From: Styela clava
Lineage: Eukaryota
NCBI RefSeq assembly: GCF_964204865.1
Contig: NW_027556593.1
Span: 1 to 64,000, forward strand
DNA: 64,000 nucleotides
Reading direction: 5' to 3'
Below, in pieces: positions 7,071 to 63,496 of this stretch. The translations under genes and the position numbers were made by a program. Position 1 is the first letter of the stretch, and each line of letters opens with the position of its first letter. Under the pieces are notes generated by a model. It worked only from the letters and a program-made list of their open reading frames with translations, was not told the origin of the DNA and did no database searches.

Positions 7071-7435
7071 TGGAAAATTCAGAAATTAAAAAAATAAAAG
7101 TACACACTGGAGCACCTTGTCGATGCTTCATGGATTACCTATATTATAAATATAAAATAGATATGATATATGTATTACGTTGATGACAAGAAAAGCAAAT
7201 CAAAAAAGAATATAAAACATGATTAGGAATGGGTTTTTGTTCTGAAAGCCCAGAATGAACATACTTGCGTCAAAAATTAATGGTAACAGCATCACGATCA
7301 GATATGATTCGTCTTGAAAAATATTACGCAGATCTAAACGCAAAAGTTCAATCATCAAAACCAAAAATTGTTTTAGTAGGAGAGAACAAAAGTTCTATTG
7401 ACATAAATGACACAAGAAACGACAAAGAAGAATAA
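7070..7435 (+). CDS. Putative terminase small subunit (121 aa)
   Basis: TAATG-coupled ORF overlapping the TerL start; function inferred from position only. Confidence 0.45.
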
Positions 7436-8927
7436 TCCAGAAAATAATTTAACATTAAGTAATTTGAGAATTTCAGATACATATTCTTATTTATACGACT
7501 TGTTAGATCAAATAAAACACAACAAACCTTTTTCAATTGACGAAGTCAACTTAGCGGGAGGACGTCAAGCTGGAAAAACTTGAAATATTATTACTTTCTG
7601 TTTGTTGGCAAGCCTATACAACTTGGACAAAACATTTCACTTTTATTTCATTCGTAAAGTTTTGACTAATAAAAGAAACATGTTTGAACAAATCAATAAA
7701 GTAATGCCTAAATGATTCTCAAAAGCAATGGGTATTACAACCAACATAACATATAATTCGATGAAAGGTTATAATTTCGAATTAAACGTTTTAGGAATCA
7801 CTGGACAAAAAACAGCATACCAAGCACAATTAGGTCTTCCCCGGACAAATGCGGACTATATTATAATCTTCTACGAAGAAGCTTACGAGTTTAATGCTCG
7901 TGATTTTGACCGTGTATTCAACGCTACCGGAGGATCGAAAAATTCAAAGATTTTGATTTTCAAAGCCAGCAACCCATGAAACCCAAGTTGTGCATATTTT
8001 CAAGACTTTCAAAATGTATTGCCGTGAAACGAAAAAGTAATGATGAGTAAAGGAGAGGATTATTATTTCGACAAGAAAAACAGAACTCTCTATCATTGAA
8101 CATGCATTGTTAAAACGGTTCAGGACGATATTGTTTCGCCAAATCGTATTAAAAAGATGTACGAACGGGCTCATAAAAACAAACTCGAAGCACCAACCAT
8201 ATTATATGGAAAGCCAATGATTGCCGAAAACCAAACATTCGACACATCGAAAATTATCTATGTTGGAGGAGAAGGTGATGAGCCGTCTCTTATTCCATAT
8301 AATGATTTTTTGATTCGTGTAGGGATCGACTTCGGACAAACTCGTAATCCAACAGCAGTTGTTTTCGGGATATCGAATTTTGAAGGATCTCGAATATTGG
8401 TACTCGACACCTTAACAATTGAACATCACGAAAGAGCAATTCACACGCCGGAATTGACAACTCGTATTTTAGGATTTATTGTATATAATATGAATCTTTT
8501 TGAACTAGACAAAAACGAAACTGTTTACGTTAATTGCGATACTAGTGATATGCGACTCGTGTGAGATCTCCAATCATTAGCTGATAAAAGAAATATTGAT
8601 TATCTTTCTTTTTCGGGTGTTAAAAAAAATTCTAAAAGATTTAGAAGAAGCGAACGTCTTATGGCTTGAATGCTAGCTTTAGGAAATCGTTGCTTTTACA
8701 TGTTTCGGAATGAAAACAACAAAAAATTAATTGCTTCTATGCAATCTATCGTTTTGAGACCTGATAAAAAAGGTTTTGTTGAAGACGAAAGTAGTGGTAG
8801 CGGTGACGACCAATACGACGCACTATGTTATGCGTTCTCTGACGAAATTGCCAGAAGAACATTAGGACAACCCACCGAGGAAGTTTCTAAAGAAATGATT
8901 AACGAAAAACCCGTGACTTCTTCTTAA
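7407..8927 (+). CDS. terL: Terminase large subunit
   Basis: Walker A GGRQAGKT, Walker B IIIFYEEA, coupling motif ASNP, nuclease GIDFG and DDQYDALCY. Confidence 0.92.
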
Positions 8928-15596: not shown

Positions 15597-16074
15597 TTTT
15601 TGGTCCTCCTTTATTTGTTCTAACTATAAAATAATATCCTAAAATAATTTGTACGATGAATAGTAATAGTATGATTATACCACAAATGATAAAACCAGTT
15701 GTTTTTAGTGATAAAAAATATCCTACTCATGCTGTGTAAAGTGGAATCAATCCACTAACTGTAAATATAAAACCTGATTGTACAAGGCTAAATGATTTCA
15801 AATCTTTTCATTTTCGTTCAATGTTTAATCCTGAAAAGAAAAACGAAATGTTTGTTGCCAGGAAAGCAAACGCCCCCATTGGAAAACCAAGAAGGTAATA
15901 AAAATACACCGCATTATTATCTCCACTCATGTCTCCGATGACACTTCATTCTACGTCACTAATCGCACATATTACTATTGACATTGTCGTAAATAATAAG
16001 GCTAAATAATTAATAGCCAATACTACCTTCAATATTGTTTTTTTTCAGTTTATCGGTTTTTTTATATTAAGCAT
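15583..16074 (-). CDS. Multi-pass membrane protein (163 aa)
   Basis: Code-4 ORF with about 4 hydrophobic segments. Confidence 0.65.
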
Positions 16075-16843
16075 TTTTTTTGTTCTCCGTTCTTTTATTT
16101 ATTATACACTGATAACAATATAAATTGTATCTTTTTCTACCTGTAAAACTTTCAGGTGTTTTTAATTCTGTATTTTCGAGGTTTTTATCTTCCGTGTGTT
16201 CAGCATCAAGATTGTTTCCACATTTACATTTATTGTACGGAATGTCAGTGAAATAATGACTTCTTTCTTTTAAAAAATCAATAATTGCTGTTTCATCTCG
16301 AAAAATACAGCTATATTTGTTAATCATAATATATGTAATTGATACTCCTCTCGAAAGTAAAAAACGAAAAATCATTAACACGTCATCCATTAAATGGTTG
16401 AAAAAACCTAATTCTTCAAAAACAACCATTTTTATATTTTTGGGTTTTTTAATGAATTTCGTGATTCAATCGTATTCGCTTCCAAATTCGAAAAATAAAG
16501 ATTTATTTGAAACAGATAATGATTGTCCCATATCTCACAAGAAACAATTTTTTTCAATTTTTGAAAACTCTTCGTGGCTTAATAATGATGTACTTAATTT
16601 GCACACATTGTATTTATCGTAATTGTCTGTTGGTCGAATTGATTCTTTCGGCACTACATATAGTATTTCATCAGGTTTTAGAAAACTATCCAGTCATTTC
16701 TTGACATTTGTGGTTTTTCCGGTTTTCATTGCTCCGAAAACACCAAACATTAATCCTGTTTCGAAACGTTCTGCGTCTTCTTCGAAATCAAATCATTTCC
16801 GATCATCATTTCGGTTTCATTTAATTATATTACTTTTTTTCAT
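16067..16843 (-). CDS. Divergent thymidine kinase-like protein
   Basis: FGAMKTGKTT, VVFEELGFF, Zn ligands CKC and CYQC. Confidence 0.7.
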
Positions 16844-17484
16844 ATTTCTCCTCAAAGCTCCTTATCTTGGGTTGTTTTCCTATATATTGTAACTTTTTCT
16901 ATTTGTTGTTTAACGGCGTAACCACCTTTAGCGTTGAAAAAATCGAATGTTTTTCGAAACGCAGAACGTATTAGGTTAACGTACTTTTTATCAAGGCATT
17001 TTTCGTCGTAATTGTTTGTTGGTTTTCGAATTGTTGCTCGACGCATTATTTCAGTCGTAGGACAATCGAGAAAATGAATTTCATCAGGGAAATAATCATC
17101 TAAAATAGTTTCGTTATATAATCCTAATAATTCATGTTCATTAATTGTTTTGTCTCCACCGAAAACTTGATAAGCATAAGTACTAAAAATGTATCGATCA
17201 CAAATAACAACATCGTATTTTTTCAATTGTGGTTTGATATATTTCATAAATAATTCTCATCCAATTCCGATAAACAAAACTGCTTTTGTACGTGAACTAA
17301 TATCTAGTTTATCATTGAAAAAGATTTTATTCGCCATAATGCGTCCAAATTTTATGCCTTTTGGTTCGCACGTCGTAAGTACTTTCAATCCTTCTTTTTT
17401 TAATTCTTTTTTTAATTTTTTAATATATGTTGTTTTACCAGAATAATCAATTCCTTCGACAACAATAAATTTTCCTTTTTTCAT
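16825..17484 (-). CDS. tmk: Thymidylate (dTMP) kinase
   Basis: FIVVEGIDYSGKTT, EP, VICDRYIFSTYAYQ, PD..FLD. Confidence 0.92.
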
Positions 17485-17486
17485 TT

Positions 17487-18150
17487 TTACATGTTCTCCT
17501 TTCGTATCACTATTGGTACTGCTTGTCCTTTCAGTTCAATAACTATGTGATCCCCAACCTTGTATCCTTGTTTGTTTGTTGATAAATTCACTTTCTTAGC
17601 GAAAATTTCATTCAATTTAACAGGGTGGTTCAATCATGCTATATAACTTATTTTACCAGTTTTTTTTTCCAAATTGTGTAGTTATTTTTTTGATTGTCGC
17701 ACACGCCGTCGGTCCCGGTAATTTGAACGCATATTTACGCTCGATAATAATACCATCAATAGGATAATCAATTTGTTTTTGTTGTTCGATATAATCGTTT
17801 AATTCATCAATTTTTATTGTTTTTTCAACATTTTTATAATTAATGAAATCAATTAGTTTATGTCGTTCCACTTTTTGCTTCCTATTAAGAAGACCAACAA
17901 CGTCTCTTCGTGTCCCATTTTCTTTCTTCATAACAAGTTCGCCCCAGCCGACTTCCAATATTCCTTCTATGGAAAAAGTTGTTATTTCTGATCAAGAACG
18001 GCAAACAATTAACTTGTTGGTAGAGGCATCATAAAATGCTCCCACTCCGTCAAGTTTTGGACTCACCACTATTGTTTTAGCGTGTGGTGCTAATTTAAAC
18101 AAAATGTCTTCTAAGTTTCAAAATTTTTTTAACGTTTTATTATTTATCAT
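17487..18150 (-). pseudogene. Minimal NAD+-type DNA ligase, +1 frameshift in an A9 tract (copy 1)
   Basis: PKLDG, GEL, YPIDGIII, AFK, then an OB-like domain; 664 nt versus 663 nt in the intact copy 2. Confidence 0.75.
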
Positions 18151-20427: not shown

Positions 20428-20501
20428 TGGCAGGGATAGTAGGACTCGAACCCACACCAAAAGCTTTGAAGGCTTTTGTTCTACCTTTAAACTATACCCC
20501 T
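20428..20501 (-). tRNA. tRNA-Trp(UCA), decodes UGA
   Basis: AAAGC-CT-TCA-AA-GCTTT anticodon arm, short variable loop, GTTCGA, encoded CCA. Confidence 0.92.
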
Positions 20502-20506
20502 AAAAA

Positions 20507-20583
20507 TGGTACCCACGGGAGGACTCAAACCTCCAACCTAAGGCTTAGAACACCCTTACTCTAATCAATTGAGCTACGTGGGT
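20507..20583 (-). tRNA. tRNA-Arg(UCU)
   Basis: AGGGT-GT-TCT-AA-GCCTT; acceptor ACCCACG/CGTGGGT; CCA. Confidence 0.8.
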
Positions 20584-20588
20584 AAAAA

Positions 20589-20664
20589 TGGTCGGAAAGA
20601 GAGGACTTGAACCTATGATCTCTCGGACCCAAACCGAGTGCTTTTCCATCTAAGCTACTTTCCG
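20589..20664 (-). tRNA. tRNA-Pro(UGG)
   Basis: CTCGG-TT-TGG-GT-CCGAG; CCA. Confidence 0.92.
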
Positions 20665-20668
20665 ATAA

Positions 20669-20743
20669 TGGCTGGGGTAGCTAGATTCGAACTAGCGAAT
20701 GGTGGTCCCAAAAACCACTGCCTTTCCACTTGGCGACACCCCA
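20669..20743 (-). tRNA. tRNA-Gln(UUG)
   Basis: GTGGT-TT-TTG-GG-ACCAC; U1-A72; CCA. Confidence 0.92.
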
Positions 20744-20746
20744 AAA

Positions 20747-20822
20747 TGGTAGAGCCATTGGGGATCGAACCCAAGACCTCACGCTTATAAAGCGAGCGCT
20801 ATAACCACTAAGCTATGGCTCT
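20747..20822 (-). tRNA. tRNA-Ile(UAU)
   Basis: CTCGC-TT-TAT-AA-GCGTG; acceptor AGAGCCA/TGGCTCT, A73; CCA. Confidence 0.88.
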
Positions 20823-20825
20823 ATA

Positions 20826-20899
20826 TGGAGCAGATGAGAGGAATCGAACCTCCATAGTCAGATTGGAAATCTGAAGTTCTACCATTAAACTACATCTGC
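20826..20899 (-). tRNA. tRNA-Gly(UCC)
   Basis: TCAGA-TT-TCC-AA-TCTGA; U73; CCA. Confidence 0.93.
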
Positions 20900-20902
20900 T
20901 AA

Positions 20903-20979
20903 TGGTGCTGGTTACAGGCCTCGAACCTGTACTCGTCCGTTTACAAGACGGGTGCTTTGCCACATTAAGCTAAACCAGC
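20903..20979 (-). tRNA. tRNA-Thr(UGU)
   Basis: CCCGT-CT-TGT-AA-ACGGA; CCA. Confidence 0.9.
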
Positions 20980-20982
20980 AAA

Positions 20983-21068
20983 TGGTGGAGGAGGAGAGAT
21001 TCGAACTCCCGTATCTAAAAAGAATCTGATTTACAGTCAGACGCGTTTAACCACTTCGCTACTCCTCC
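20983..21068 (-). tRNA. tRNA-Tyr(GUA)
   Basis: TCTGA-CT-GTA-AA-TCAGA; long variable arm; CCA. Confidence 0.93.
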
Positions 21069-21069
21069 G

Positions 21070-21145
21070 TGGCGGACCTGACGAGAATCGAACTCGCTAT
21101 CTCCTCTTAGACAGAGAGGCATGTCATCCATTACACCACAGATCC
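21070..21145 (-). tRNA. tRNA-Asp(GUC)
   Basis: CCTCT-CT-GTC-TA-AGAGG; G73; CCA. Confidence 0.9.
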
Positions 21146-21148
21146 AAA

Positions 21149-21437
21149 TGGTGGAGATGGCGGGATTTGCACCCACTTCTTGACGCAATTTGATCATGAT
21201 TGTTTAATTTCGCTTTATATGATCATTCAAACGAAACTTAGTTGCTATTTACGAAATTGTCCCGCAACTGACAATTAAGGGGTTTTTTTGTTATTATATT
21301 CTCTAATATGACGGTGAAAACTGAAACGTGTTATTAGATACCAATGAGGATTCATTCATCAACATTGAAAGGTTGTTTGTAGTTGTTTTTGCATTTGTTA
21401 AAAAAAGAAACTACGCCAATCGAACCTATACATCCCC
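21149..21437 (-). ncRNA. ssrA: tmRNA (289 nt)
   Basis: 5' GGGGATG pairs with CATCTCC-ACCA including G3.U; T-arm; helix 2 TTGGCGTA/TGCGTCAA; tag ORF 21392-21303; two pseudoknots. Confidence 0.9.
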
Positions 21438-21443
21438 GAATAT

Positions 21444-21449
21444 ATTATA
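21444..21449 (-). promoter_or_regulatory. -10 box (TATAAT) for the tmRNA-tRNA operon
   Basis: TATAAT ends 6 nt upstream of the tmRNA 5' G. Confidence 0.6.
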
Positions 21450-22451
21450 CTACACTTTTCCTCCTCCAAATAATTTTCTTTTTAAATATTGTAGAAATGT
21501 TTCTTTCTTTTCTATTGGTGTTTTAGGTTCGAGTTTCCTATAAACTCTTGCGAAACGATGCAATGCTGGTCATCTACTGGTGAATATTTTATTCTCTCCA
21601 TAAATGTTATAGTGTTTACCAACAACCTCAAAACCTTTATCTTTAATGTTTTTAGGTGTTTCATCGAGCGAAAAAATGTAATCGTTTCAAATTCACAATT
21701 TACGAAAAACAGACAATAAAAGATGATTTGTTTTATCTTTTTTAATTTTAATGTCATTCTCGATAACATATTCTTCGATAATATCTTTAATTTTAGTATG
21801 TGTTTTCGTACTTTTTTTATATTTGTTGTCTAAGTATAAGTTGTCAACCTCTATTGTACTAAATCGCATTCTTTTTATTCGATATAGCGATCATTTAGTT
21901 AATCTATGTTTTTTAAAAAAAGGACTTTGAAATTTAATGTCTTTACATAGTTCGATTTGTTCTTCATTTAGTTTTCACAAATTGTGTTTCTTGATTTCTA
22001 ATTTTTGACAAATAGCTTTTATATCTTTTTCTTGAAGATATATAGTTGTGTTTTTAAATATACTGATTTCGTATTTGAACTTTTCAAGAAACTTTAAATA
22101 TCCAAATTCTTCTCCTGTTTCGATAATCTTTTTCGCCAAAATAGAAGCACTCACTAATGCTGATTTTGGATCAAAGCATTTATTGTATATATTAAGTGAT
22201 TTAATATTGTAAAACACAGGACAACCTTCTTTATTCATGTATCATTTGGCTCCTGCTTTCTTCATTCTATTCAAGAATCATCAATAAACCGAAAAATGTT
22301 CCTCAAAAGTAGTTAATATTCCCGATTTGGTATCTTTCGAGTCTCAGTAGTTAACTCACACTTGTTTACTTGTTATTCCTTTATGTTTGTGTGTGTAGTA
22401 AAACATTCTTTCCTCGTATGTTAATTGATTTATTTGTTTTTTATTTTTCAT
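21450..22451 (-). CDS. Hypothetical basic protein (333 aa)
   Basis: Continuous code-4 frame containing ORF 21975-22238. Confidence 0.65.
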
Positions 22452-22455
22452 AGTT

Positions 22456-23010
22456 TTATTTATATTTAGTCTTTTCTATATAATGTTTAATACATAATAC
22501 TTGATATTTATCAGCGTCTCCAACCAAATTATTACTGTCGTTGTGTAAAATGTAATTAGAATATGCTTTTTCATCGCATTCGAAACAACGAGCTTCGTCT
22601 AATTGGTAACGAACGTCAGCAAATCTTCCAACGTATTCTTGAAAAAAATATCGTGGATCTGTCTTATATAATGTCAATAGACAAAATACAAGAGTAATAC
22701 GACGGCGTTGTAAGTTTGGAATTTGTTGTAGAAACTCATATGGATAAAAGTGAAATTCATCAAAAAATAGAACATTGTGTCCTTTAGCTATGGCATCTTC
22801 AATTTTATTTGTCAAATCGATATGATCACGAAAAGTGATAACTGGTCTAATTTGACGTGTTTCTCTTGTTGTTCCTTCTAATTGAAAAATTTGTGGTTCT
22901 TCAATACCTCATTCTGCGATAAGCTTTTTTAACTTTGTCGTCTTTCCTGCTCTCATGATTCCTTCGATTGAAATAATGAGCCCTTTATTCAATAACTCTT
23001 GTTTGAACAT
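22456..23010 (-). CDS. Thymidine kinase-like protein
   Basis: IEGIMRAGKTT, VLFFDEFHF, RCFEC, YQVLCIKHY; GGAGG RBS. Confidence 0.78.
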
Positions 23011-23055
23011 TGTTTTTTTTCCTCCTGTGTTCCTTTTTTTTTTATTTTTTTTGTT

Positions 23056-23212
23056 TGCTGGCAGAGAGACGAAGCCTTGACGTTTACCAAGACCTCGTCA
23101 TAAAACCGGCCGTAATATGACCGGTTAAGGTGAATGAAACAGTGACTTTGAAAATAAAAAGATAAAGGAAAGGAAATTGTCGCTTAAGCTAGTTGTCACT
23201 GCCTCTTCACAA
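23056..23212 (-). ncRNA. Putative structured leader or small RNA (three hairpins)
   Basis: Intergenic stems 23130-46/23195-210, 23104-26 and 23068-99. Confidence 0.45.
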
Positions 23213-23263
23213 TAATATACATGGTAAAAAAAATAAATTGTGTTTCCTTTTTGCATCTTTTTT

Positions 23264-23665
23264 TTATCTTTTTTTTTCTTGTTTTGTAATTTCCTTTTCA
23301 AACTTTTTGAGCATGTCCTTAAATATCATTTGATGTAGAAAATCATATCCAAATTCTTTATCAAACTTTTTTTCAGGCATGTCTTCTCGTCATTCAGCGA
23401 AAACAACATTCAACCGGCATAGTTTTTTAGTGTCGCAACTTACCATAACCTTAAGGTCAAATGATTTATCCTCGTCTTTACGTTGTTCGAAATTCATGAA
23501 GAACACAACTCTTTTACTGTCGTTATCATCTCAACTGGTGTTTGTGTATATTCATTTTCGATGTTTTTTTGTAATTTCCTTACTGATTTTTTCAAAATAA
23601 TCATGAAACTTCAAATTTCTCTGATTCATTTTTGAATTAAATTTTTCTACTTGTTTTTTTGTCAT
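23264..23665 (-). CDS. Hypothetical protein
   Basis: Code-4 ORF MTKKQVEKF... Confidence 0.55.
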
Positions 23666-24452
23666 ATATTTCATTATTCTTCTCCTTTATATTTATACGA
23701 TCCTCTTTTTTTCGTGAATTTTTGATTAGCTATTTCTTTTCTAATTCTATTAATTGTCTTTATTTTTTCAACGTTTTCTTTTTCTCAATCAAGAACAGCA
23801 TATACACCAATAAATATTTTGGGATTATCGCCTTTTTTTCAAGTTGAAAGTTTTGTTTTTGCTAAGTTAACAAGATTTTTTCGACATCTATTGAAAGCGC
23901 TACGTGAAACTTTATTTTTCATGTAAGATGGGTAATTATTTGTTGATTCATCGGCTTCATTATAGTCTTTGTTAAAATATTTTTGTGAAATTTTTCAAAC
24001 TTTTTTCATACGAATATTTTCAAAATCATAACTATATAATCTATTTCAATTTTTAGCTAGTATAATTGAACTCATTTCTTTTCTAATAGTTTTTTTAAAT
24101 TCTTCAAGATAATCATCTAATTTTTCAAAATCCTCAAGTATTAAATAAACTTCGATTTTGTTATTATCACTATCTTCTAAATGATATCATCGTCTAGGTT
24201 TTTTTTCTAAAATATGAATATTAAAGTTTACAAAGTCAAATCTATGACCCATAGACTCAATAGTGACGACAAAACGACCTCTCAAAGGTTCATGTGGTGA
24301 CTCATCCCAGCTCATTCAATCACAATAAACCATACCACAATTCATTTTTTCAACAGCACTAATAAGTGTATTTTCCATTTTTTTTTCTAATTGTTTTAAT
24401 TCGTCGTAAGATATTTTTTTATATTTTCCATTTCCATCCGAAAAATTTGACA

Positions 24453-25049
24453 TTATTCTTTTCCTCCTTTTAGATATTTAATAATATAATCTATTTTTTT
24501 TTCAACCTCTAATAATCGTTCTTCTGTAATTGCACCGCTACTTGTTGGGTGAGGTACCGCCATTTGAATTAATCTCTTCATGGTCTTAAAAGCCGGTAAA
24601 TTGGGAAATCTATATTTTTCATTTTTGTTTCATCATTTGTTATGTTCATACGTGTATTTATCATCATCCCTTACTGTACTAGTACAGCTTTCTCACACGC
24701 TATTAATGTATTTTAAACTCAAGTATGCGTCTTTTAAGTTAAAAGGTTTAGGTAATAAATTAGCATATCCATTCAATTCATAAAAATCTTCATCTTTATT
24801 TTTTATAATACAGTTACCGTTTGTTAATAGTGGTGTGGCTGACATATAAACACCTGTTTTGTGTAAGCTATATAATCTAACAACATATAATTTATTGTTG
24901 TATATAAACATATCTAATTTTTTATATTTTTTTTTAGAATCGTAAAGTGGAACACCTTTTTTGATGAAAGCCACTTGTTCTTTTGTCAATTGTCATTCTC
25001 AAATATGATCCGCGTTGTGTTTTAGTGTTGTTTCTTTATTTTTTGTCAT
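24453..25049 (-). CDS. Stand-alone copy of the repeat domain found in the giant virion protein (198 aa)
   Basis: WQLTKEQVAFIKKGVP...PFN...LSLKYINSV...FPNLPAF aligns by eye with the repeats at 38704, 39889, 40438 and 42217. Confidence 0.75.
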
Positions 25050-25570
25050 TATTTTTTCCTCCTTTTTCAAACGTTTTAACTGTTACGTAAAAACCTTTTT
25101 TTGCTCAAACAGTATTGTCTTCGTCCCCTTTTGGTGATCATATTGTACTTTCAATACTAGTTCTAGCATCATATTCAATTTTTAAATCTCATAGTATACT
25201 TTCCAATTTATCCAACTCTTTTTTGTTTTTCATTCAAATTTTATATGTTTTCATTATTCTTTTCCTCCTTTGTTATCTAATAATTCTTTTTTAATTAATT
25301 TTTCTTTTTCTTCTTTGATCAATCTTTTCAATTCAATAATATCTTCGTGACCTAACAAAATACATATAGCAGGTATAGTACCTAAAATTGGTATTAATAA
25401 AAGAAAAGCTGTATATATACGTATATTTCTAACTTTTTTTCATAATTCTTTATATTTTGTTTTTACTATTAATGTTGCTTTTTCGTTGTATCTAGCTTCT
25501 AATGATTTGTTGCTGTTATTGTTTGATGATCCTAAGGCAAATCCTATTAATCCACTTGTAAAATTATCCA

Positions 25571-25906
25571 TTATTCTTGACCTCCTTTATTTTTTATAAT
25601 CATAATTATACAATAAACAATAAGTAATGCTCCAAATACTCCTGCTGAAATACCAGAGTTGATAACTTTTGTGGTTAATCTACCAGCATCTCGAAGATCT
25701 CTCGCTACTATATCTATTACTTTTGAATTTGTATACCCTGCTGTAGATTTTACATTTTTAACTCCTATAGTTTCAGTAATATATACTTCCCTATCTACGA
25801 TACGTTGTTGTAGTTTAGAATAAAAAACACCTACACATATCAAAGAACTTACAAGTCCTAACGTAGTAACTCCTACGATTAAACCATCTGTTTTATTAAA
25901 TTTCAT
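25571..25906 (-). CDS. Two-TM membrane protein
   Basis: Hydrophobic ends; TAATG-coupled. Confidence 0.7.
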   Translation of the reverse strand: MKFNKTDGLIVGVTTLGLVSSLICVGVFYSKLQQRIVDREVYITETIGVKNVKSTAGYTNSKVIDIVARDLRDAGRLTTKVINSGISAGVFGALLIVYCIIMIIKNKGGQE

Positions 25907-26078
25907 TATTCTTTTCCTCCTATTGTTTTAAATAATTTTTTAATATTTTTTTCTTGTTCTATACTTTTTTCTGCGTTATGATTAATACATTCACCTAACT
26001 TTTTAATGTCTTCATGATTTGCTTTAATCATCTTTTCAAAATTTTTCAATAATTGAATAATAGTTTCATTTTTTGTCA

Positions 26079-26450
26079 TTATTCTTTTCCTCCTAATTTG
26101 TTTATTATTTTTTCACATGTGTCTACGGTCTTTTCAAGAATATCTTTTTTAGGTAGTTTTACATGTTTTAAACGTTCTCTTAATGGCATTTTATTCAACT
26201 CACTATCTGGCATATCGCCGGTTGTGTTCATTGTTGCCTTATTCATAGCGTACACTGATAAAGGAAACATTAACATCATAACAGAAGAAATTGTTAATGA
26301 AAAACAGCAAACAATAGCTATGAGTTTTAAATTTGTATTATGTAATTCTACTATTCCAAAAATTGAAAGAGAAAAAACTATAATAAAAAACACCAACAAT
26401 AATATATCATAAACATTTAATTTATATTTTTCGTTAATTTGTACATCCAT
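26079..26450 (-). CDS. Two-TM membrane protein
   Basis: Hydrophobic segments; TAATG-coupled. Confidence 0.7.
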   Translation of the reverse strand: MDVQINEKYKLNVYDILLLVFFIIVFSLSIFGIVELHNTNLKLIAIVCCFSLTISSVMMLMFPLSVYAMNKATMNTTGDMPDSELNKMPLRERLKHVKLPKKDILEKTVDTCEKIINKLGGKE

Positions 26451-27065
26451 TATTTTTTTCCTCCTTTTAGGTTTGATCCTATATATTTTACAACAGCGCT
26501 TAAAAGTTTCACTGTGTCATTTTGATTGTGAATTAGTTTTGTTATTTGTAACTTCATTAATTCAATTTCTTTTCGTGAATTATTTTCCATTGGTTTTTTT
26601 CTCCTTAGAAGTGATCTTATCTGTTTTCTTCTTTATTTCTATATTTTTATTATATCACATTATTTTTTTTCTTTCATTATTTTTTTCCTCACTCTCAGGG
26701 AGGTCCTCTTCTTGTTGCGATAATATCTTCATAATTATCTATACAATGTTTAAATGCTATAATCATATTTTTATACTGCTCTTGCATATCCATTTCTTTT
26801 TGTATTCTTTCTTCACATTCATCGTAAAGTCTGCTACTATTCGCTAAATGTTCTCTCAATAAGTTTAAATCGAGACCCCATGGGACAATGCTATTTTCAA
26901 TCTCATATATATATTCTTCTACTGTCTTTTTTTTTACTGGTTGGTTTTCACCATCTTTTTCCTTCATTTTTTGAATTATTGCTCACATAAGCAATTGTTT
27001 ATAAAACTTTAAACTTTCGTATTTTTTTATTACGTTATCCACGTAGTTTTCTACTTTTTTGTACA

Positions 27066-28319
27066 TTATTTTTCTTTTCCTCCTTTTGAAATAATCAAAT
27101 GTTTTTCTCATAATTTTTTAAATTTAATCATGTCTAATTTGAAACTATTTTTCTTACTTATTAATTTAATCAATAATAAAGGTACTCCTTTTGATGTAAC
27201 CAAATCAAATATTTTTTCTCCTTTTAAAACATAACCTTTTTGTATGTTTAATAAATCACTTACTGTTTTTGTTGTCATTATTTTTCAAAAAACCTTTTCT
27301 TCTTTCATTACTATTGTATCATATTCTTTTTCGAAAAGTTTAAATAAAAATGGTCCTCGATAATTTAAGAAGTAACCACGCATTGAAGCATTTCGAATTA
27401 AATGTCGTACAACCGAACCGTGACGTTTTTTGAAATCAATATATTTTTCTTTAATCAAGTCTTTCAAACAATATTTTATCGCTAATACATGATCACAAAT
27501 AATTTTAACATTGATATCATTTGTAGTTTTCTTTTCAATTTTGTCAGCAATATCAGTGTATTCTTTCAACTGGAAAGGTGTTTTAAAGTTGTTAACAACA
27601 ATCAACAATCTTTCCAATCCGGCTCCAGTATCTATATTTTTTTTGTTTGACATAGTATAATTACCTTCACCATCATTTAACATATAAGAAAATACAACGT
27701 TTCATATTTCTAAATATCTGTCATTATCAATATTTTCTTTCAATAAATCAATTCCTTTGTTTTCTTTATCTAACTGCTGTCCCAAATCATAAAAAAATTC
27801 AACATTTGTTCCACATGGGCCAACTCCTAAATCTCAAAAATTAGTTGTTTTATCTCCTGAAATCAAATGGTCTTCTTCAACACCTATATTTAACAATATT
27901 TGTTTAGTTTCATCGTCCGAAAACAAATACGTAATGTACAATTTTTGAATGTCCAAATTCAATCATTTTGGCGATGTTAAAAATTCTAATGCTCACGTTA
28001 ACGATTCTTTTTTTTGATAATCATTAAATGAAAAGTTACCTAACATGCGAAAAAACGTTAAATGTCGATTAGTTTTACCTATTAAAGAGATGTCGTTTGT
28101 TCGTATTACATCTTGTACGTTAAAAAGTCGTGAATGCGGTGGTGTTTTTTCTCCTAAAAAATAAGGTCTCAACGCTGAAACGCCTCTCAACGCTGAAACG
28201 CCTGAATTTACAAATAATAATGAACCTTCTTTGTTAATTATCGATTTGTTTTCTATTTTAAAATGTTTCTTTGAAGTTCAAAACTGACTTCATTTTTCTA
28301 TTAATTCTGTTTTATTCAT
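27066..28319 (-). CDS. alaS: Alanyl-tRNA synthetase, aminoacylation half only (417 aa; no editing or C-Ala domain)
   Basis: LLFVNSGV, Q..IRTNDI..IG...RHLTFFRMLGNFSF.DY.K, NFW..G.GPCG..EFFYD, RYLEIWNVVF, IDTGAGLERL, IICDH; own RBS and coupled stop. Confidence 0.93.
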
Positions 28320-33868: not shown

Positions 33869-33945
33869 GGTGAGTGTGGCGAATCGGTTAACGCTCCGGA
33901 TTGTGGGTCCGGTACGAGTGGGTTCGACTCCCACCGCTTACCCCA
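33869..33945 (+). tRNA. tRNA-His(GUG)
   Basis: CCGGA-TT-GTG-GG-TCCGG; G-1:C73; CCA. Confidence 0.92.
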
Positions 33946-36318: not shown

Positions 36319-39300
36319 ATGGCAACACGAGTATACGAATTAACGGAAGCACCTTATATTTCAGTAGCGGATTTTAAAAAATTTTACGCTAGAGAATATA
36401 AGTATGAACCAAGCGACGCGGAAATCCAAGCGGTTATCCAATTAGCTTTCACAAAACTAAACATGTTTGTAGGAGCAAAGGCTATCAGTCAAGAAAGTTT
36501 GAACGAGGCCCAACCTGACCCTATTAAACGGGACTTTTTCAAGGAAGCTATTGGACGGTTAGCGGATTACTTTTTGGACATAGGTATTTACGACCAAGGA
36601 TCACATAATTCTTTTTCTTTCGGTCAAATTAGCGCCAGTTCAAATAACATCTATGAAGTCGAATATGTTCCAAGAATTGTTCGTCAATTAATCGAATATA
36701 GTGAATTGTATACTCCTTTTGTCACTTTGGACAGTTCCATTGGGGAATGTTCTACAGACGTAGATGCCAACAATGTTGTTGATTTTTTCGATGCTTTCAT
36801 TACTCGTGATGACGCTGTAAAATTAGTCGACACAATGAAAACGACACTTCAAGAAGAAATAGGTGTTCGTTTACATAATACTTTAAATGGTACTGATATG
36901 TCATGACATGTTAAAGCACCAATTCCATTAAACGAAACAATCACCAAAATTTTAACAGATTTTGATGAATCAACAAACACACCCAAATATAGTTTGAATG
37001 GAGAACTTATTAATGATCTTAATCTAGCAACAGAAGATTTTGTTTCGCAACAATTCAAATATCTTGACTCAATAAAATACACTACAGATCCTGTTTATGA
37101 ATCTAAAGTGTTAGTCGATTATATTCATAGTGCCACAGAAGGTGGACATCATTTCTTAGCTGTAAAAAGAGAAGACTTGATTTCTCACTGAAATTTGGCA
37201 ACCGAAATATTTGTTTTGAAAGAAATTGAAAAACGTCATCCAACTAACGAAGAGGTTGACGAAGCTGTTTCAACACTTATGACTAAACACAGTGTTAATT
37301 TTATTAAAGGGGACATGACAGAGGATATCGTTTCTCATTTAATAACATTGGATAAAGAATTGGCTACTGAATACGATCATAACGACTCATCTACATTGGA
37401 TGATATTGAACCTCTTACTCTTATTTCATATAACGACGAAATATACATGATGTTTGCAAAAAACACAACATCTATTTATTTAATAAACAAATACAAACGT
37501 GAAATTTGAAGACACGATATAAACACTCAGTCAGAAAATCTTAATGGAACAAAAGTAATTTTAACTATTAAACAAACAACTTTGGCTATTGATTATATTA
37601 AAAATAATAATAATGCTTCGGCTCCTACTCTTGTTAACTACGAGTCAACCTTATTAACAGAAGTTTATGACAGAGATGAAATCGAAGACGGGTTTATTCC
37701 ATTTTATACGGCCAATAAAACATTTGTCGGACATAAAACAGGAGCTCTTGAAACAGGAATCGTGTTAATCGATCCTAAAATAAAAAGTGCTGATGACAAT
37801 GGAACACTGTTGCATCATCCTTTAATCGAAAAATTATCTTCAACAGATAGAACATCGGAATTCTTAAAGTCTCTTTATTATTTCGAAAAAAATGGCAAAA
37901 TGTACATGAAACAAGTTAAGGGTGACATCGAACAATTATTATTGTCTGAATCAGGACTTAACACTGTACATTCTATTTTACATAACAACACAAGTTTTGC
38001 ACCCATAAGAGACACTTATAACAAAGCTGAAATCGATAGTAAACTTGATGGTATACTACGATTAGATGATTTATTATTAAACGAAACTACTTTACCTTGA
38101 ACACAAGTTCCAACAGAAAGTCAAAGAACAACATTAACTGCTGTTTTTAAAGTTCCTAAAACATTTTATGGATTAAACGTTGGAAAATGAGGAAGCGATT
38201 GAGCTTACAATCCTTTATCACTTCGTACAGAAGAAAAAGTTTATCTTTATAAATTTAATAACTTTGGAACACCTCAAACTTTAATTGAAGACATTTGAAG
38301 TTTATGAAAAAAAGATACCGCTGAATTTCCTTCAAATTGATTAGAATTAACTGAAGATCAAAAACACGATGCGGCCTTAAAATTTGTAAATAAAATATGT
38401 GGTTCGAGTTACAAAAGAAGTGACTTTGAACACATTGGAGGTACTGTTTCAAAATTAGATCATATTAGTCCAATTAAAAGAAGCGATTTAGGAAAGCTTT
38501 ACGAATATTTTGTTCTTTCACAAAATCCTCCAGTTTTCCCATTTGAGTCTAATTTCAGCACACCGCAAAAATGATCTGACGAATATGGCTTTACAAAAGA
38601 ACAATTCTATAATCATTTTGTTAAAAACACAATTATTACAGAACATATTAATAATATTGTTAATACCAAAGGTATTGATGTATCATTAGAATCATTTTTA
38701 GAATGAAAAACACCGTTAAGTGACGCGCAAATCGACCATATTAAAGAAGGTGTAGTTTCTTTCGATACGACTAAATATGACACATACAAACCCCTTGATA
38801 AATTTGTTTATGACAACGAAGTATATGCTGTTGTAACTCGATCGGCAGATGATTCGAACTGAATTATTATATCTTTATTTAAGAATATAGGACCTATCGA
38901 AATAAGAGCAAATGGTGACAAAGTACTTATTACGGAATACGATAATACATTACCTAGTCCATATAATTCGAGTGGGGCAAATTTGAATTTACAATACGTT
39001 TGTTCGATTATTTCGTGAATCAAACACGTTCAAGAACATCCGATTTCTGACGCAACACCTCAACAAATCAACGAAAGTTATCACAAAAGATTTACATTCC
39101 TTGAAGGTCATTTACCAACATTTCCTATTTTCACTACTGACGACGGAACAATATATGGTGTAAATGCTCTAGGTTATTTAAACGAGACTTTTGCTAAATT
39201 ACATCAAATCGAAACAGGCGAAACCGTTTATGCTACAAAAAAAGACACTTATACTAGACCTCAAATTGATACAAAAATTGATTCTATTTTCAGAACTACA

Positions 39301-42300
39301 AACCCTTTATTATCAGAACTAAGATTATTCTGAGAATCAACACCAAGTGAAGCTCAAAAAACAGCCTTATTATCAACTCTTAAAATTCCTGAAACTTATT
39401 ATGCTTTAGAAGAAGAAGGGTATGGAGGCGACTACGCAACACAACCTTTGAGTTTAAATGTTGGAGACAAAATAAATATCTATAAAATCCTTAACTTTGG
39501 CGAAAAAACTCATGTTATCAAAGATGCATGAAGTTTATACAAAGGACCCGGTGATTGAGACGATTTGACTGAATATCAAAAACGAGCAACTTTATTAGCT
39601 TGAATTAATGATATATGTAGTTCAACTTACGTGTTGAGTAATTACACAAAACCAGATGGTGAAGTCGAAGAGTTAAGTCATATTGTACATATTAAACGAA
39701 GTGACTTAGGTTTACTTTTCAATCATTTCGAAACGGATAACGATAGTGATGTAAGCGAAGTAGATGGTATTGTTAAAACACCAAAACTTTATAGTGAAAA
39801 AAATCATTTACAAAAAGAAGATTTCTACAACTTACTCAGAGGAAAGATTGAAAACTTAACCAAAGTGTCAATTGATTCTTTCGTTGATTGAGAAACACAA
39901 CTTACAGATGCTCAAATTGATTTTATCAAAGAAGACATTCATGCTTGAGATCAAGCTAAATTCGACGATTACAAAATATTCGATTTATTTACTTATAATA
40001 ATCAAGTTTACATTTGTTCTCGTATTTTAGGAACTAATATCTTTGCTATGAATTTATTGAGAAATCAAGGAATCGTAACATTTAATAAAACTATAGATCT
40101 AGTAGCTTTTCACGATGCAGCCGTAACAACAATCCCAGCACCATTTAATACAAATTTAGCAAACTTAAGTTTAAAATATATTAACTCATTATATTCATGA
40201 ATTGAAGATCACGATAATTCAGCCATTTCAAACCCCGTACCCGGAAGTTCAGTATTTGGTGATTGAGACTCTCGATTATCATATACAACTCCAGAGTACT
40301 CAAACTTCCCTACACTACCTGTGTTTACAAACAGACAAGGTAAGATTTTTGGTGTTAAATCATATAATTATTTAAAAAAGTTTTTTGCTTTAAAAACAGA
40401 CGTGAAATCACATACTACGATTGAATCTTTCCACGGATGAAAAGAACAACTTACAGATTCACAAATTAATTATATTCGTGAAGAAGTTGATAATTATGAT
40501 GAAAGCAAATTTAGCGAATATAAACCATTTGATTTATTTAATTATAACAACAATCTTTACATTGTAGCCAACAAGCATAACGATAAACATTTGTTCGAAG
40601 CAGTTAGTTTATTACGAAATGGAAATGTCTTAGAATTTGGTATAGGCGATGTGGCTATTGTTGCTGGAGGAAGTTTTAGTACTACAATCGAAGCACCTTA
40701 CAATACCGATTCTGCTAACTTGAATTTACTTTATATTAATTCTATTTATTCTTTCGTTGAAGACCATCAAAGTCACGTAATATCCAATCCTGATTTAAGT
40801 AATCAATTCCACAATCGTTGACAAAATCGTTATGATTATATAACGCCTGATTCTTCAAACTTCCCAACTATACCTATTTTCACTAATAGTAAAGGAAAAA
40901 TGTTTGGAGTTGATGCTCATAATTTTATTAAAGAATATTTTGCTGAAAAAGATAACGTATATACTCGTCAACAAGTAGACGCACAGTTAGATAATCGTTT
41001 GTCTGAAATAGAAACTCTAATCGTTGATAATGAATTATTACCTTACGACGCTGACACAAACCCAACAGGGTTAAAATGAAACGAAGTACCGACAGGATCT
41101 CAACGTGGAAAATTATTAAAATTGTTAGGTATTGAAAGTGAATGATGAGGATCTCGTTGAACATACAATCCATCGCGATCTTCTATAGATGTAGGGGACA
41201 CAAGAATTGAGAAAGTTATACCTTTTACAAAAAACAGTGAAATATATGATGTATTAGATGAGTTGAATACTCCTGAATTAAGAATTGCTCGAGTTAATGA
41301 AATCTTAGGGACTAATTATACATCTCCACATTCTTCGGTTTATTGAAGAACTGGCGATATTCAAAAATTGATTGATAGTGGACGACTTTATAAAGCCACA
41401 CCCACTTATGAATCAGTATCATATTACGTTTCGCCACGATGATATTCTGAACCTAATCATCTAACTCAAGATGAATTTTTCAATCTTATCAAACAATATA
41501 AAGCAGATCTAGTTACTAACTTACCAGACGAAATTAATCACAAATTATATGCTAAAATTAAAGACGTTTACAACAAACCTCAAATCGACGCAAAATTTGA
41601 TGGAATTCTACGAACTGAAGATTTAATATTAAACAGAGACACTATTCCTTGAACTACAATCCCAAATGCTGAAAAACTTCAAACTTTAGTTACTGTTTTG
41701 AATACAGAAGCCGAGTATTATAGTCTTGTTCAAGAAGGTTATGGAAGTAACGTAATTTCGCAACCTCTTTCTCTTAATGTAACTGACAAGGTAGATATCT
41801 ATCAAATCTGTAATTTCAAAGAAGAAAGTTGTGTAATTCGTGATGTTTGACAATATTACAGAGGACCTTCGGACTGAGATGATTTAACAGATTATCAAAG
41901 ACATTTAGCTTTATTGACTTGAATTAATAATCTATGTGGTTCAAGCTATACATTAAGTAATTATATTAAAAAAGATGGAAGTACAGATGTATTAAGCCAT
42001 ATTATACATGTTAAAAGATCTGACTTAGGGAAAATCTATACAGAATTTAGAGATGCTGATCCAACTCGATCAACTGAAGTACAAAATATAGCAAGCACTC
42101 CCGAAAAATATTCAGCATTGAATCACTTAACAGAAGATGAATTTTATGACTTACTAGCTGACAAATCTCTAAACGTGAAGGCTGTTAACAACGCGTCAAT
42201 TGAGTCATTTCATGGTTGAAACGAACAGTTGACAGATGATCAAATTGATTTCATAAGAGCAGAAGTACCTGTTCTTGACATGACTAAGTTCGATACATAC

Positions 42301-44112
42301 AAGGTTTATGACTTGTTTGTTCAAGATGACGAATTATATATTATTGCTAATATTGTTGATCCTAGTTTGTACTGTATTAATTTACTAAGAAACTATGCTG
42401 TTATAAAATTTAGCAAAGATGGAAGTTCAGATTTAATTGGATCTCACGGTCAATTCGTAGAAGAACCTTTCAATACAGATGGTGCTAATCTTAGCATGAA
42501 ATATATTAATTCTGTATATTCGTTTGTTGAAGACTATCAAAATCACGTTATTTCAAATCCCGACCCTCAAGACGAAATTGCTCAATCATGAGAAAATCGT
42601 TTCACTTATCTAGACCCATCAAGATCAAACTTCCCAACAATACCTGTTTTCACTAATCAAAAAGGAAAATTTTTTGGTGTTGATGGTTACGATTATTTGA
42701 AGAATTTCTTCGTTCTAATTGGAGCTAATTATACAAAACACCAAGTAGATACATTATTAGAGAACCGATTGTCACCATTAGAAACAAAAGTTGTTGATCT
42801 AGAATTAGAACCTTTTGATGAGAATAATAATGCTGAAGGTTTGAGATGAACTGACAGACCAACAGGTTCACAAAAAGATAAATTGGTTAACATATTAAAA
42901 GCACCTGCAACTTATTCGGCACGTTTTAATTACACAAGTAATGTTTATTTTATAAGTAATAGCCAACCTTTAACAATATATAAGTATTTACCATTTGAAA
43001 AAGTCGAAAAATACTCTTCTGGATTAAATTACAAAGAAACAAAAACTATATTACAAAGAATAGCCCATGTTAATTCTCTTCGTAATATAGGTGGATCTTC
43101 TAGCAGTTATGGTAGATATAGACCAATTAGTTCATCAGAAATTGAAACTGTTTTAGCTAACGTTGACTTTCAATGAACTAAAGGAGCCGATGATTATGAT
43201 TCAACACATGGCGAAAACTCACCGCAAAGTTATTCTAAACGACATGGTCTTACAGAACCACAATTCAGACATTTAATTACACAATATGAAGCAAAAGTGG
43301 AAGGTCAAACACTAATCGAAAATATCGGTAACGACAATATAACAGATGACTACTTTAAAGGTCTAGGTAACACCGAAATATTCGACACAGCACGTAGTCG
43401 TCTTGAAATGTTACACACCCCTCATCCATGAGTAGAAGTTTTAGGTACGGGTTCAGCAATTACAAAAATGGATGCATCAAACAATATTGAAGCAGACACT
43501 TACTACGGTCAAATAGGACAAAAAACAAGTTTCGCAATCACTGACAGAGTAGGAACTCAATTAAAATACTTTAGTAACTCGTTTTTTGTTAGCTTAAATA
43601 CTGGTAGTTCTAAAGAATTTAAAGATGGATTGTATTCTTTTGATATCCATATCGAACCTCCTCTTAATAAGGCTAATGTTAGATGACATTCATTTTTAGT
43701 ACCAAGACAAACTAGCGACACAACAAACAAAACTTTTCAATATTTATCAACATCTGACAATATTAACCCAAATGGTTCAATATCAAAAACATATTTCCAC
43801 TCTACTTTAAAATCAGCGAGTCCATGACAACTCAACTCAAATCTTTTCAATCACTATTTCGCAACAAAAACGGGGGTTAATATTAAAGGGAATCTTAAAT
43901 GAACAAAGGCAACTGGCGACTTATTATACTGAGGAGATATCTGATGATTAGTAAACAACGACGTTTGACGTCATCCTTTTTACGTTTACTACCATATGAG
44001 AGACAATGTTGCTCTAAGAGATATAAAATGAACATTTAACGCTAATGGTAATTATAATTTAGCTAAACCAACAAAATTTAACTTAACAGTTAGAAGAGAG
44101 AGCGGACATTAG
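36319..44112 (+). CDS. Giant modular virion protein (2597 aa): adaptor-like N-terminus plus repeats
   Basis: All plus-strand track ORFs from 36319 to 43686 share one frame and are joined by TGA; ends TAG at 44112. Confidence 0.8.
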
Positions 44113-62833: not shown

Positions 62834-63496
62834 TTACATGTTCTCCTTTCGTATCACTATTGGTACTGCTTGTCCTTTCAGTTCAATAACAATGTGGTCT
62901 CCAACCTTGTATCCTTGTTTATTTGTTGATAAATTAACTTTCTTAGCGAAAATTTCATTCAACTTAACAGGGTGGTTTAATCATGCTATATAACTTATTT
63001 TACCAGTTTTTTTTCCAAATTGTGTAGTTATTTTTTTGATTGTTGCACACGCCGTCGGTCCTGGTAATTTGAACGCGTATTTACGCTCGATAATAATACC
63101 GTCAATAGGATAATCAATTTGTTTTTGTTGTTCGATGTAATCATTTAACTCATCAATTTTTATTGTTTTTTCAACATTTTTATAATTAATGAAATCAATT
63201 AAATTATGTCGTTCCACTTTTTGCTTCCTATTAAGAAGACCAACAACGTCTCTTCGTGTCCCATTTTCTTTTTTCATAACAAGTTCGCCCCAGCCGACTT
63301 CCAATATTCCTTCTATGGAAAAAGTTGTTATTTCTGATCAAGAACGGCAAACAATTAACTTATTGGTAGAAGCATCATAAAATGCTCCCACCCCATCAAG
63401 TTTTGGACTCACCACTATTGTTTTAGCGTGTGGTGCCAATTTAAATAAAATGTCTTCTAAGTTTCAAAATTTTTTTAACGTTTTATTATTTATCAT
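62834..63496 (-). CDS. Minimal NAD+-type DNA ligase (220 aa, intact)
   Basis: KLDG, GEL, DGIII, AFK, then a LigA-like OB fold (QFGKKTGKI...PV.L...VGD...GQAVP). Confidence 0.8.

Follow-up and report, generated by a model that had tools for sequence, protein, structure and literature searches.

The first 64,000 nucleotides of contig C191 (NW_027556593.1) in the eukaryote assembly of Styela clava (377 Mb, 380 contigs), here called the window, are a head-to-tail repeat (concatemer) of a 45,313-bp bacteriophage unit, phage A, which carries a gene for a shortened alanyl-tRNA synthetase (mini-AlaRS) together with a transfer-messenger RNA (tmRNA) gene. Both genes are present and conserved, both are akin to those of the family of Candidatus (Ca.) Spiroplasma holothuricola, and they are separated among sister phages. 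Judged by their sequences, both look functional. The initial annotation had proposed an enzyme dedicated to charging the tmRNA. This part was not supported, since a sister phage, phage B, keeps AlaRS under purifying selection and has no tmRNA. In our judgment it is probable that the two genes were taken separately from the host lineage, that the AlaRS charges any acceptor with a G3.U70 pair, and that the tmRNA rescues ribosomes with host SmpB and EF-Tu.

The two copies of the unit in the window are 96% identical. The unit encodes the terminase large subunit (PF04466, phrog_2), portal (PF05133, phrog_533) and primase, in agreement with the 45-kb phage first described for this stretch. TGA is read as Trp (8 TGA codons in the AlaRS gene, several at Trp positions of homologues), and the phage carries a tRNA with the anticodon UCA. 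Taken with the three phage genes, this identifies phage A as a tailed phage of a bacterium that uses genetic code 4. Terminase matches across the assembly numbered 39 and fell into three types, phages A, B and B'. They were located on at least 26 of the 380 contigs (Table 1), and the contigs examined were phage concatemers, not host DNA.

The AlaRS gene matched PF01411 with 247.5 bits (cut-off 30.3). The enzyme itself was thus confirmed, but not the 417 aa originally given for it. The window copy contains an 18-nt tandem duplication, whereas 23 of the 24 full-length copies encode 411 aa (1,233 nt), and the short-read contigs from all three covering runs leave out the duplication at full depth. 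The protein is therefore 411 aa long, and the duplication is likely an assembly or read error. No other synthetase was found among the 45 phage open reading frames (ORFs) scanned, as had been stated before.

The class II catalytic domain, with its motif 2 and motif 3 residues and the alanine pocket, is present. The active-site residues R67, F84, W156, E198, V203, D224, G226 and R231 are common to all 75 aligned homologues, and the roles of these residues in ATP and alanine binding are described in PMC12143591. The predicted structure had a mean confidence (pLDDT) of 92.5 and a TM score of 0.87 to the E. coli AlaRS fragment 3hxu, and its closest viral folds were giant-virus AlaRS. Both the editing domain and C-Ala are missing: the ORF stops at position 431 of 847 of TIGR00344 (277.8 bits against a cut-off of 457), and no PF07973 editing domain was found among the phage ORFs scanned. 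At the two positions associated with G3.U70 recognition, the Asp400 equivalent is Thr in both phage alleles and in all five host-family genomes, and the Asn303 equivalent is Lys in the phage enzyme, with an ambiguous alignment of this loop in the host-family genomes.

The AlaRS gene is under purifying selection. The ratio of nonsynonymous to synonymous substitution rates (dN/dS) between phages A and B was 0.11-0.14 (p<1e-14), and that between the B variants was 0.065; for comparison, three core genes gave 0.03-0.04 between B and B'. By region, the A versus B ratio was 0.046 in the catalytic part and 0.20 in the tRNA-recognition part. From the intact active site, this selection, and an architecture shared with the active Tupanvirus enzyme and with the only AlaRS of a cellular relative, we infer that the phage AlaRS alanylates RNA. 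It is plausible on sequence grounds that the phage tmRNA is among its substrates.

The tmRNA gene of the window (289 nt) matched all 374 positions of RF00023 (1-374) with 38.1 bits and an E-value of 4.9e-14, which is below the Rfam gathering score of 47 bits. Default ARAGORN and Rfam at the gathering cut-off both miss it. Two of the five host-family tmRNAs also score below the gathering score, and three score above it. The acceptor stem has 7 bp with G1-C72, G2-C71, G3.U70, A73 and an encoded CCA, so that the G3.U pair and A discriminator reported initially were recovered, and the T arm has 5 bp. The last 31 nt are 84-94% identical to the five host-family tmRNAs. Helix 2, which joins the ends, consists of 12 consecutive pairs, three of them G.U, and is shorter than the Rfam consensus.

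A tag reading frame was found by ARAGORN at a lowered threshold and by direct translation (Table 1); the A at position -4 of the resume codon is critical according to PMC2481249. A pseudoknot (PK) in the PK3 position was found by script, and none of 300 dinucleotide shuffles gave one. The second, in the PK4 position, was picked by eye with its pairs checked, and is absent from the output of the same, stricter script. Stem 1 of PK2 was also assigned by eye. PK1 is absent, with no room for it; replacement of PK1 is known to leave a tmRNA active (PMC2481249). The pseudoknot script is insensitive, as it found none in a second, 350-nt tmRNA allele or in six cellular tmRNAs. By structure, the 289-nt gene is a tmRNA with predicted rescue activity. 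The idea of a non-degrading tag was dropped, because host-family tags likewise have no common end.

The 289-nt tmRNA occurs in 20 identical copies in the assembly. The 350-nt allele occurs in two copies at the same site (L211:1501-1850 on contig C137; also C98). It scores 70 bits against RF00023, passes the gathering score, is called by default ARAGORN, and has a 16-codon tag frame and a small hairpin instead of PK1. Its last 106 nt are 77% identical to the tmRNA of genome G005, and it is followed by a different tRNA set that includes Val. Thus two unlike tmRNA alleles share one site, while the neighboring AlaRS genes are 99.5-100% identical.

The initial annotation proposed examining whether AlaRS and tmRNA occur together in related phages. 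They do so throughout phage A, and the association breaks in one direction only, with AlaRS lacking tmRNA in phage B. In phage A the spacing between the two genes is 4,430-5,632 bp, with 8-13 ORFs between them in the two units counted, and is neither adjacent nor fixed; in the window copy they lie 5.6 kb and 13 ORFs apart, and in other units 4.4 kb with fewer ORFs. Neither gene is present on C48, C67, C180, C283 and C339, five contigs of type A that measure 9-26 kb and are too short to reach the loci.

Phage B (contigs C216 and C318) is a distant relative of phage A, with 32% identity in the terminase, 34% in the polymerase and 26% in the portal. It has three copies of AlaRS, 94% identical to that of phage A, and its sole tRNA is tRNA-Gly. 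No tmRNA was found by Rfam search in one whole C216 unit or in all of C318, and there was no tRNA-Ala; as a positive control, the same search found the 289-nt tmRNA in 50 kb of C154. Phage B', with nine terminase copies (97% identical to B) on three contigs, has neither AlaRS nor tmRNA (one unit length on each of the three contigs; Rfam on C90 only). Instead, a tRNA-Ala with G3.U70 heads its 12-tRNA array. The one B' unit annotated also has a Pth gene (L218:4922-5497; C90:34922-35500) with 103.9 bits to PF01195 and a TIGR00447 score above the cut-off, and its product is 29-37% identical to Pth of the five host-family genomes. The tRNA-Ala of phage B' is preceded by a non-coding stretch of about 250 nt (L219:600-847) that is possibly structured and has no Rfam match. 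Each of the three phage types therefore has exactly one of AlaRS or tRNA-Ala. An AlaRS in a small phage is unusual, as is this pattern of AlaRS or tRNA-Ala.

Ten tRNAs were confirmed in the phage A unit, none of them tRNA-Ala. The membership of the array behind the tmRNA varies among phage A units, with 7-9 tRNAs over 20 loci, and no tRNA-Ala was found at the 20 tmRNA-flanking loci. A tRNA-Ala within the N gap of the window had been named as a finding that would count against the module; the whole N-free unit of C154, the counterpart of this gap, holds eight tRNAs, none of them for Ala. The claim that the tmRNA is the only Ala acceptor thus stands as far as tRNA-Ala is concerned, with the correction that the phage tRNA-His also has G3.U70, but with C73. 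The tRNA-His of Ca. S. holothuricola has G3-C70, unlike that of the phage, and a relaxed AlaRS could perhaps charge the phage tRNA-His off target. The tRNA-Ile(UAU) at window positions 20747-20822 occurs in phages A and B', and the same tRNA is also the solution of Ca. S. holothuricola for life without tilS (PMC5861454). Phage tRNAs are at most 92% identical to host-family tRNAs. Weak ARAGORN calls at lowered thresholds had no Rfam support and were disregarded.

The closest AlaRS match of similar length was a 463-aa protein of Ca. S. holothuricola MT37, 45% identical and second best overall. This protein (L031:10001-11392) is the only AlaRS of its genome, and no editing domain was found elsewhere in it. 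The four other host-family genomes have AlaRS of 905-943 aa behind the same membrane-protein gene, as judged by eye, and tmRNA, SmpB and Pth are present in all five genomes. AlaRS trees were built with 50 rows under LG+G4 and with 18 of those rows under the mixture model LG+C20. The phage alleles fell in a 10-row clade with the five host-family genomes, with support of 100/100 under both models. Their sister position to Ca. S. holothuricola received 97/88 under LG+G4 and was unresolved under LG+C20, and the phage branch is long (0.94-1.4 changes per column).

The assignment of the host family from this clade is well supported by the trees, and a truncation of AlaRS as one event in the host is not well supported. 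The host of phage A is likely a tiny-genome marine Mollicute, a Mycoplasma-like bacterium; Ca. S. holothuricola is placed in Oceanoplasmataceae (PMC11535214). In the order to which Ca. S. holothuricola belongs, 21 of the 401 genomes gave matches to the phage terminase, at 20-30% identity. No exact CRISPR-spacer-like match was present among the matches listed for 15 kb of phage DNA against the five host-family genomes. Loss of editing is common in Mollicutes (PMC4014445), and Mycoplasma relies on the tmRNA/SmpB pathway for ribosome recycling (PMC8403727).

Under the explanation that we favor, the mini-AlaRS and the tmRNA would have been acquired independently from the host lineage, the direction from host to phage being presumed. 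The enzyme would load alanine on any G3.U70 acceptor, including host tRNA-Ala, host tmRNA and phage tmRNA, and would recognize this pair through the acceptor stem alone, which suits a tmRNA but not a tmRNA alone. The Tupanvirus enzyme works in this way in spite of missing those domains and residues as well (PMC10036535). The phage tmRNA would rescue stalled ribosomes using host SmpB and EF-Tu. The expected dependence on host SmpB was borne out, as none was found in the 45 phage ORFs or in the assembly and all five host-family genomes have it; tmRNA is normally charged by the ordinary host AlaRS (PMC8012679). The AlaRS would form part of an accessory region that is mosaic, the tmRNA would form part of a tRNA array that can be swapped, and both, together with the tRNA-Ala and Pth of phage B', may be interchangeable genes for the upkeep of translation. 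The substrates of the phage B enzyme can only be those of the host, so the phage A enzyme likely serves host tRNA-Ala and host tmRNA besides the phage tmRNA.

Several observations weigh against this explanation. The tmRNA lies near AlaRS in all 22 phage A copies (21 whole, one cut by a contig end), and no related phage with tmRNA and without AlaRS was found in the assembly, so that AlaRS may still benefit the tmRNA in one direction. Of the 23 AlaRS changes between phages A and B, 19 lie in residues 241-370, the tRNA-recognition part, which could reflect adaptation to RNA substrates that differ between the two phages. The phage enzyme carries the replacements E85R (E in 71 of 75 homologues), P165T and Y296S and two deletions of about 17 residues, and an engineered E. 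coli AlaRS fragment of 461 residues fails to complement yeast (PMC10036535); for these reasons its activity is not certain. The host is not in the assembly, which contains no SmpB and no bacterial AlaRS outside the phage contigs. Finally, the sample consists of three phage types from one assembly, and the sequencing runs that hold the phage come from one study.

Outside the assembly, neither the AlaRS nor the terminase retrieved a close phage relative from IMG/VR. The best metagenome AlaRS matches were 30-40% identical, and the GenBank phage matches (27 records) were all under 60%. The AlaRS alignment had matches at 27 IMG/VR loci; the context was read for five, and one more came from a second scan. 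Five records have a short stand-alone AlaRS (L325, L328, L340, L341 and L355; 47-100% complete), and the two of these with tmRNA also have tRNA-Ala. L340:10001-10837, L341:9896-10792 and L355 form a clade of 178-207-kb phages with an AlaRS-like protein of about 280-300 aa, with tRNA-Ala in all three and tmRNA in two. Shortened AlaRS of 417, 460 and 665 aa occur at L328:2259-3512, L325:424-1806 and L335:9977-11974, respectively, without tmRNA, and the 417- and 460-aa proteins retain the Asn and Asp for G3.U70. In the open-access literature, nothing was found on a phage with both AlaRS and tmRNA, on AlaRS in small phages or on phages of this host family.

Demand from codons was rejected as the reason for the phage AlaRS, because the alanine share of phage proteins (3.7-4.4%) is near that of 16 Ca. 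S. holothuricola genes (4.35%). The same figures fit a different proposal, which we consider unlikely, namely that the host blocks alanine charging by disabling AlaRS or Ala-tRNA, and that the phages answer with a diverged AlaRS (A and B) or with tRNA-Ala and Pth (B'). The presence of exactly one of AlaRS or tRNA-Ala in each phage type agrees with such a counter-defence, although three types are too few for statistics, and three larger IMG/VR phages combine a short AlaRS with tRNA-Ala. The long branch of the phage AlaRS would also fit, and antiviral systems are abundant in the host family (PMC11535214). However, no defence system of this kind was identified, the host-family genomes not having been searched for one, and nothing was found on the idea in the open-access literature. 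In its broadest form, this proposal makes alanine charging a battleground in the smallest Mollicute symbionts, where a defence of the host would deprive the phages of Ala-tRNA or Ala-tmRNA and co-infecting 45-kb phages would escape with interchangeable kits, either a resistant mini-AlaRS with or without tmRNA, or tRNA-Ala with Pth; to this form we likewise give little credence. If true, phages would have acquired mini-AlaRS for counter-defence several times over, as in the unrelated IMG/VR phages with forms of 417-460 aa and of 280-300 aa.

The dedicated module of the initial annotation, in which the mini-AlaRS charges the phage tmRNA specifically as a ribosome-rescue unit, appears distinctly improbable. 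It draws on the complete co-occurrence in phage A, which has no tRNA-Ala, and on the concentration of A-B differences in the tRNA-recognition part. In addition, an enzyme that lacks C-Ala is able to recognize its RNA through the acceptor stem only; on a microhelix, charging by the Tupanvirus enzyme is 26-fold better than that by E. coli AlaRS (PMC10036535). A short AlaRS accompanies tmRNA in two unrelated jumbo phages, 2.2 kb apart in one, but both of these also encode tRNA-Ala. The module is largely refuted by phage B, and its two genes are separated by 4.4-5.6 kb of variable content. The short form and the loss of Asp also occur in the cellular relative, and thus need not be adaptations to tmRNA, and a tmRNA does not normally depend on a charging enzyme other than that of the host (PMC8012679).

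A non-canonical role for one or both genes, with a relaxed AlaRS mischarging tRNAs other than tRNA-Ala or a tmRNA serving as a decoy for SmpB instead of a rescuer, is very improbable. For the enzyme, the absence of an editing domain, the replaced Asn303 and Asp400 equivalents and the G3.U70 of the phage tRNA-His would allow it, and E. coli AlaRS with N303A charges G3:C70 tRNAs (PMC6055181). However, the change from Asp to Thr also occurs in all five host-family enzymes, no other AlaRS having been found in any of these genomes, and the Tupanvirus enzyme stays specific for G3.U70 without both residues (PMC10036535). For the tmRNA, the 289-nt allele has no PK1 and a short helix 2, and phage DS6A provides the precedent of a phage tmRNA with only the tRNA-like domain (TLD) that inhibits the host tmRNA (PMC11915505, PMC4131195). 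Against this, both alleles have an open tag frame with the correct resume context, and PK1 is replaceable (PMC2481249).

Table 1. Features of the phage A unit in the window and contigs that bear phage terminases
Feature	Position	Strand	Remarks
Terminase large subunit	7407..8927	+	PF04466, phrog_2; marker for typing phages
tRNA array, nine tRNAs directly behind the tmRNA	20428..21145	-	Asp, Tyr, Thr, Gly, Ile(UAU), Gln, Pro, Arg, Trp(UCA)
tmRNA gene, 289-nt allele	21149..21437	-	heads the tRNA array; RF00023 full-length
Second pseudoknot, PK4 position	21191..21236	-	stems of 8 and 7 pairs
H-type pseudoknot, PK3 position	21240..21276	-	stems of 7 and 6 Watson-Crick pairs
Tag reading frame	21303..21392	-	29 codons, GCA resume codon to TAG, A at -4
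13 ORFs between tmRNA and AlaRS	21450..27111	-	includes one thymidine kinase; no Pfam match above cut-off for the others where scanned
Mini alanyl-tRNA synthetase	27066..28319	-	catalytic and tRNA-recognition domains only; PF01411 positions 3-428 of 552
18-nt tandem duplication	28166..28199	-	window copy only (1 of 24 full-length copies)
tRNA-His(GUG)	33870..33945	+	G3.U70 pair, C73; identical in three further copies
Terminase-bearing contigs			C25, C48, C49, C54, C57, C67, C72, C90, C98, C125, C131, C137, C138
Terminase-bearing contigs, continued			C154, C180, C191, C216, C276, C283, C296, C318, C337, C339, C340, C347, C361

Several neighboring genes were also compared among the phages. The eight-gene block behind AlaRS (23674-27111) is 99-100% identical between phage A and one B variant (L170:7546-L171:981), and the other B variant has different genes in its place. 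Phages A and B share a repeat protein of 2,600-2,900 aa (36319-44112 in the window; L172/L216) with 84% identity over 2,275 aa. The capsid-packaging genes of these phages are 26-32% identical, and the repeat protein is therefore a recently exchanged gene; as a guess, it possibly serves host attachment. Genes for nucleotide metabolism lie at 16067-17484 and 22456-23010 (thymidylate kinase and thymidine kinase), with a third P-loop protein without a family match. A DNA-ligase-like gene encodes 165 aa in the first unit (17653-18150) and 220 aa in the second (62834-63496), and the shorter form is likely a frameshift error. A promoter scan gave 46 sites against 47 expected. TATAAT hexamers lie just upstream of both the tmRNA and AlaRS genes, in a genome that is AT-rich.

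The closest known counterpart of the phage enzyme is the Tupanvirus mini-AlaRS (Antika et al. 2023, PMC10036535), which is likewise viral, host-derived and limited to catalytic and tRNA-recognition domains. Both lack the Asn and Asp for G3.U70 and have Thr at the Asp position. They differ in their carriers: Tupanvirus is a giant virus of 1.4 Mb that encodes all 20 synthetases, and phage A is a 45-kb bacteriophage. Furthermore, the phage enzyme has 411 rather than 461 aa, is of Mollicute origin, comes from a genome without tRNA-Ala and is known here from sequence. The Tupanvirus enzyme is of eukaryotic type, a placement taken from PMC10036535 and not from our tree, whereas the phage AlaRS nests among Mycoplasmatales. 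The AlaRS of Ca. S. holothuricola MT37 shares the truncation point, the Thr motif and the absence of an editing domain with the phage enzyme, but it is cellular, is the only AlaRS of its genome and has the two segments deleted in the phage enzyme.

Phage tmRNAs are known from Bacillus phage G, mycobacteriophages Bxz1, Wildcat and DS6A (PMC4131195) and Melnitz (PMC9004378), and one survey counted them in 402 of 18,146 phage genomes (PMC9004378). The tmRNA of phage A resembles these in that ssrA is in one piece, its acceptor has Ala identity, and the phage is of lytic type and has no SmpB. It differs in belonging to a code-4 phage, in having two very different alleles at one site, no PK1 and a long tag, in being too diverged for default detection, and in being accompanied by an AlaRS. 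The huge phages of Al-Shayeb et al. 2020 (PMC7162821) also carry tRNAs, synthetases and tmRNA related to yet distinct from those of the host, but their genomes exceed 200 kb, unlike that of phage A. Among the matches listed from the annotation table of that paper, AlaRS rows occurred only in a plasmid-like genome.

Giant viruses and huge phages are known to carry synthetases, and here an AlaRS is under purifying selection in two distantly related 45-kb phages. The Tupanvirus enzyme was described in 2023 as the only working natural synthetase of this shape (PMC10036535). The phage enzyme would be a second, independent viral mini-AlaRS, alongside the cellular one of Ca. S. holothuricola and with natural full-length relatives for comparison, and would speak against that statement. 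The diverged phage tmRNAs escape the default ARAGORN and Rfam thresholds. The CRISPR targets of the symbiont family were not identifiable in PMC11535214, and phages A, B and B' are candidates for phages of this family. The co-occurrence of the three types offers a natural experiment on the reasons for a phage to carry tmRNA, AlaRS, tRNA-Ala or Pth.

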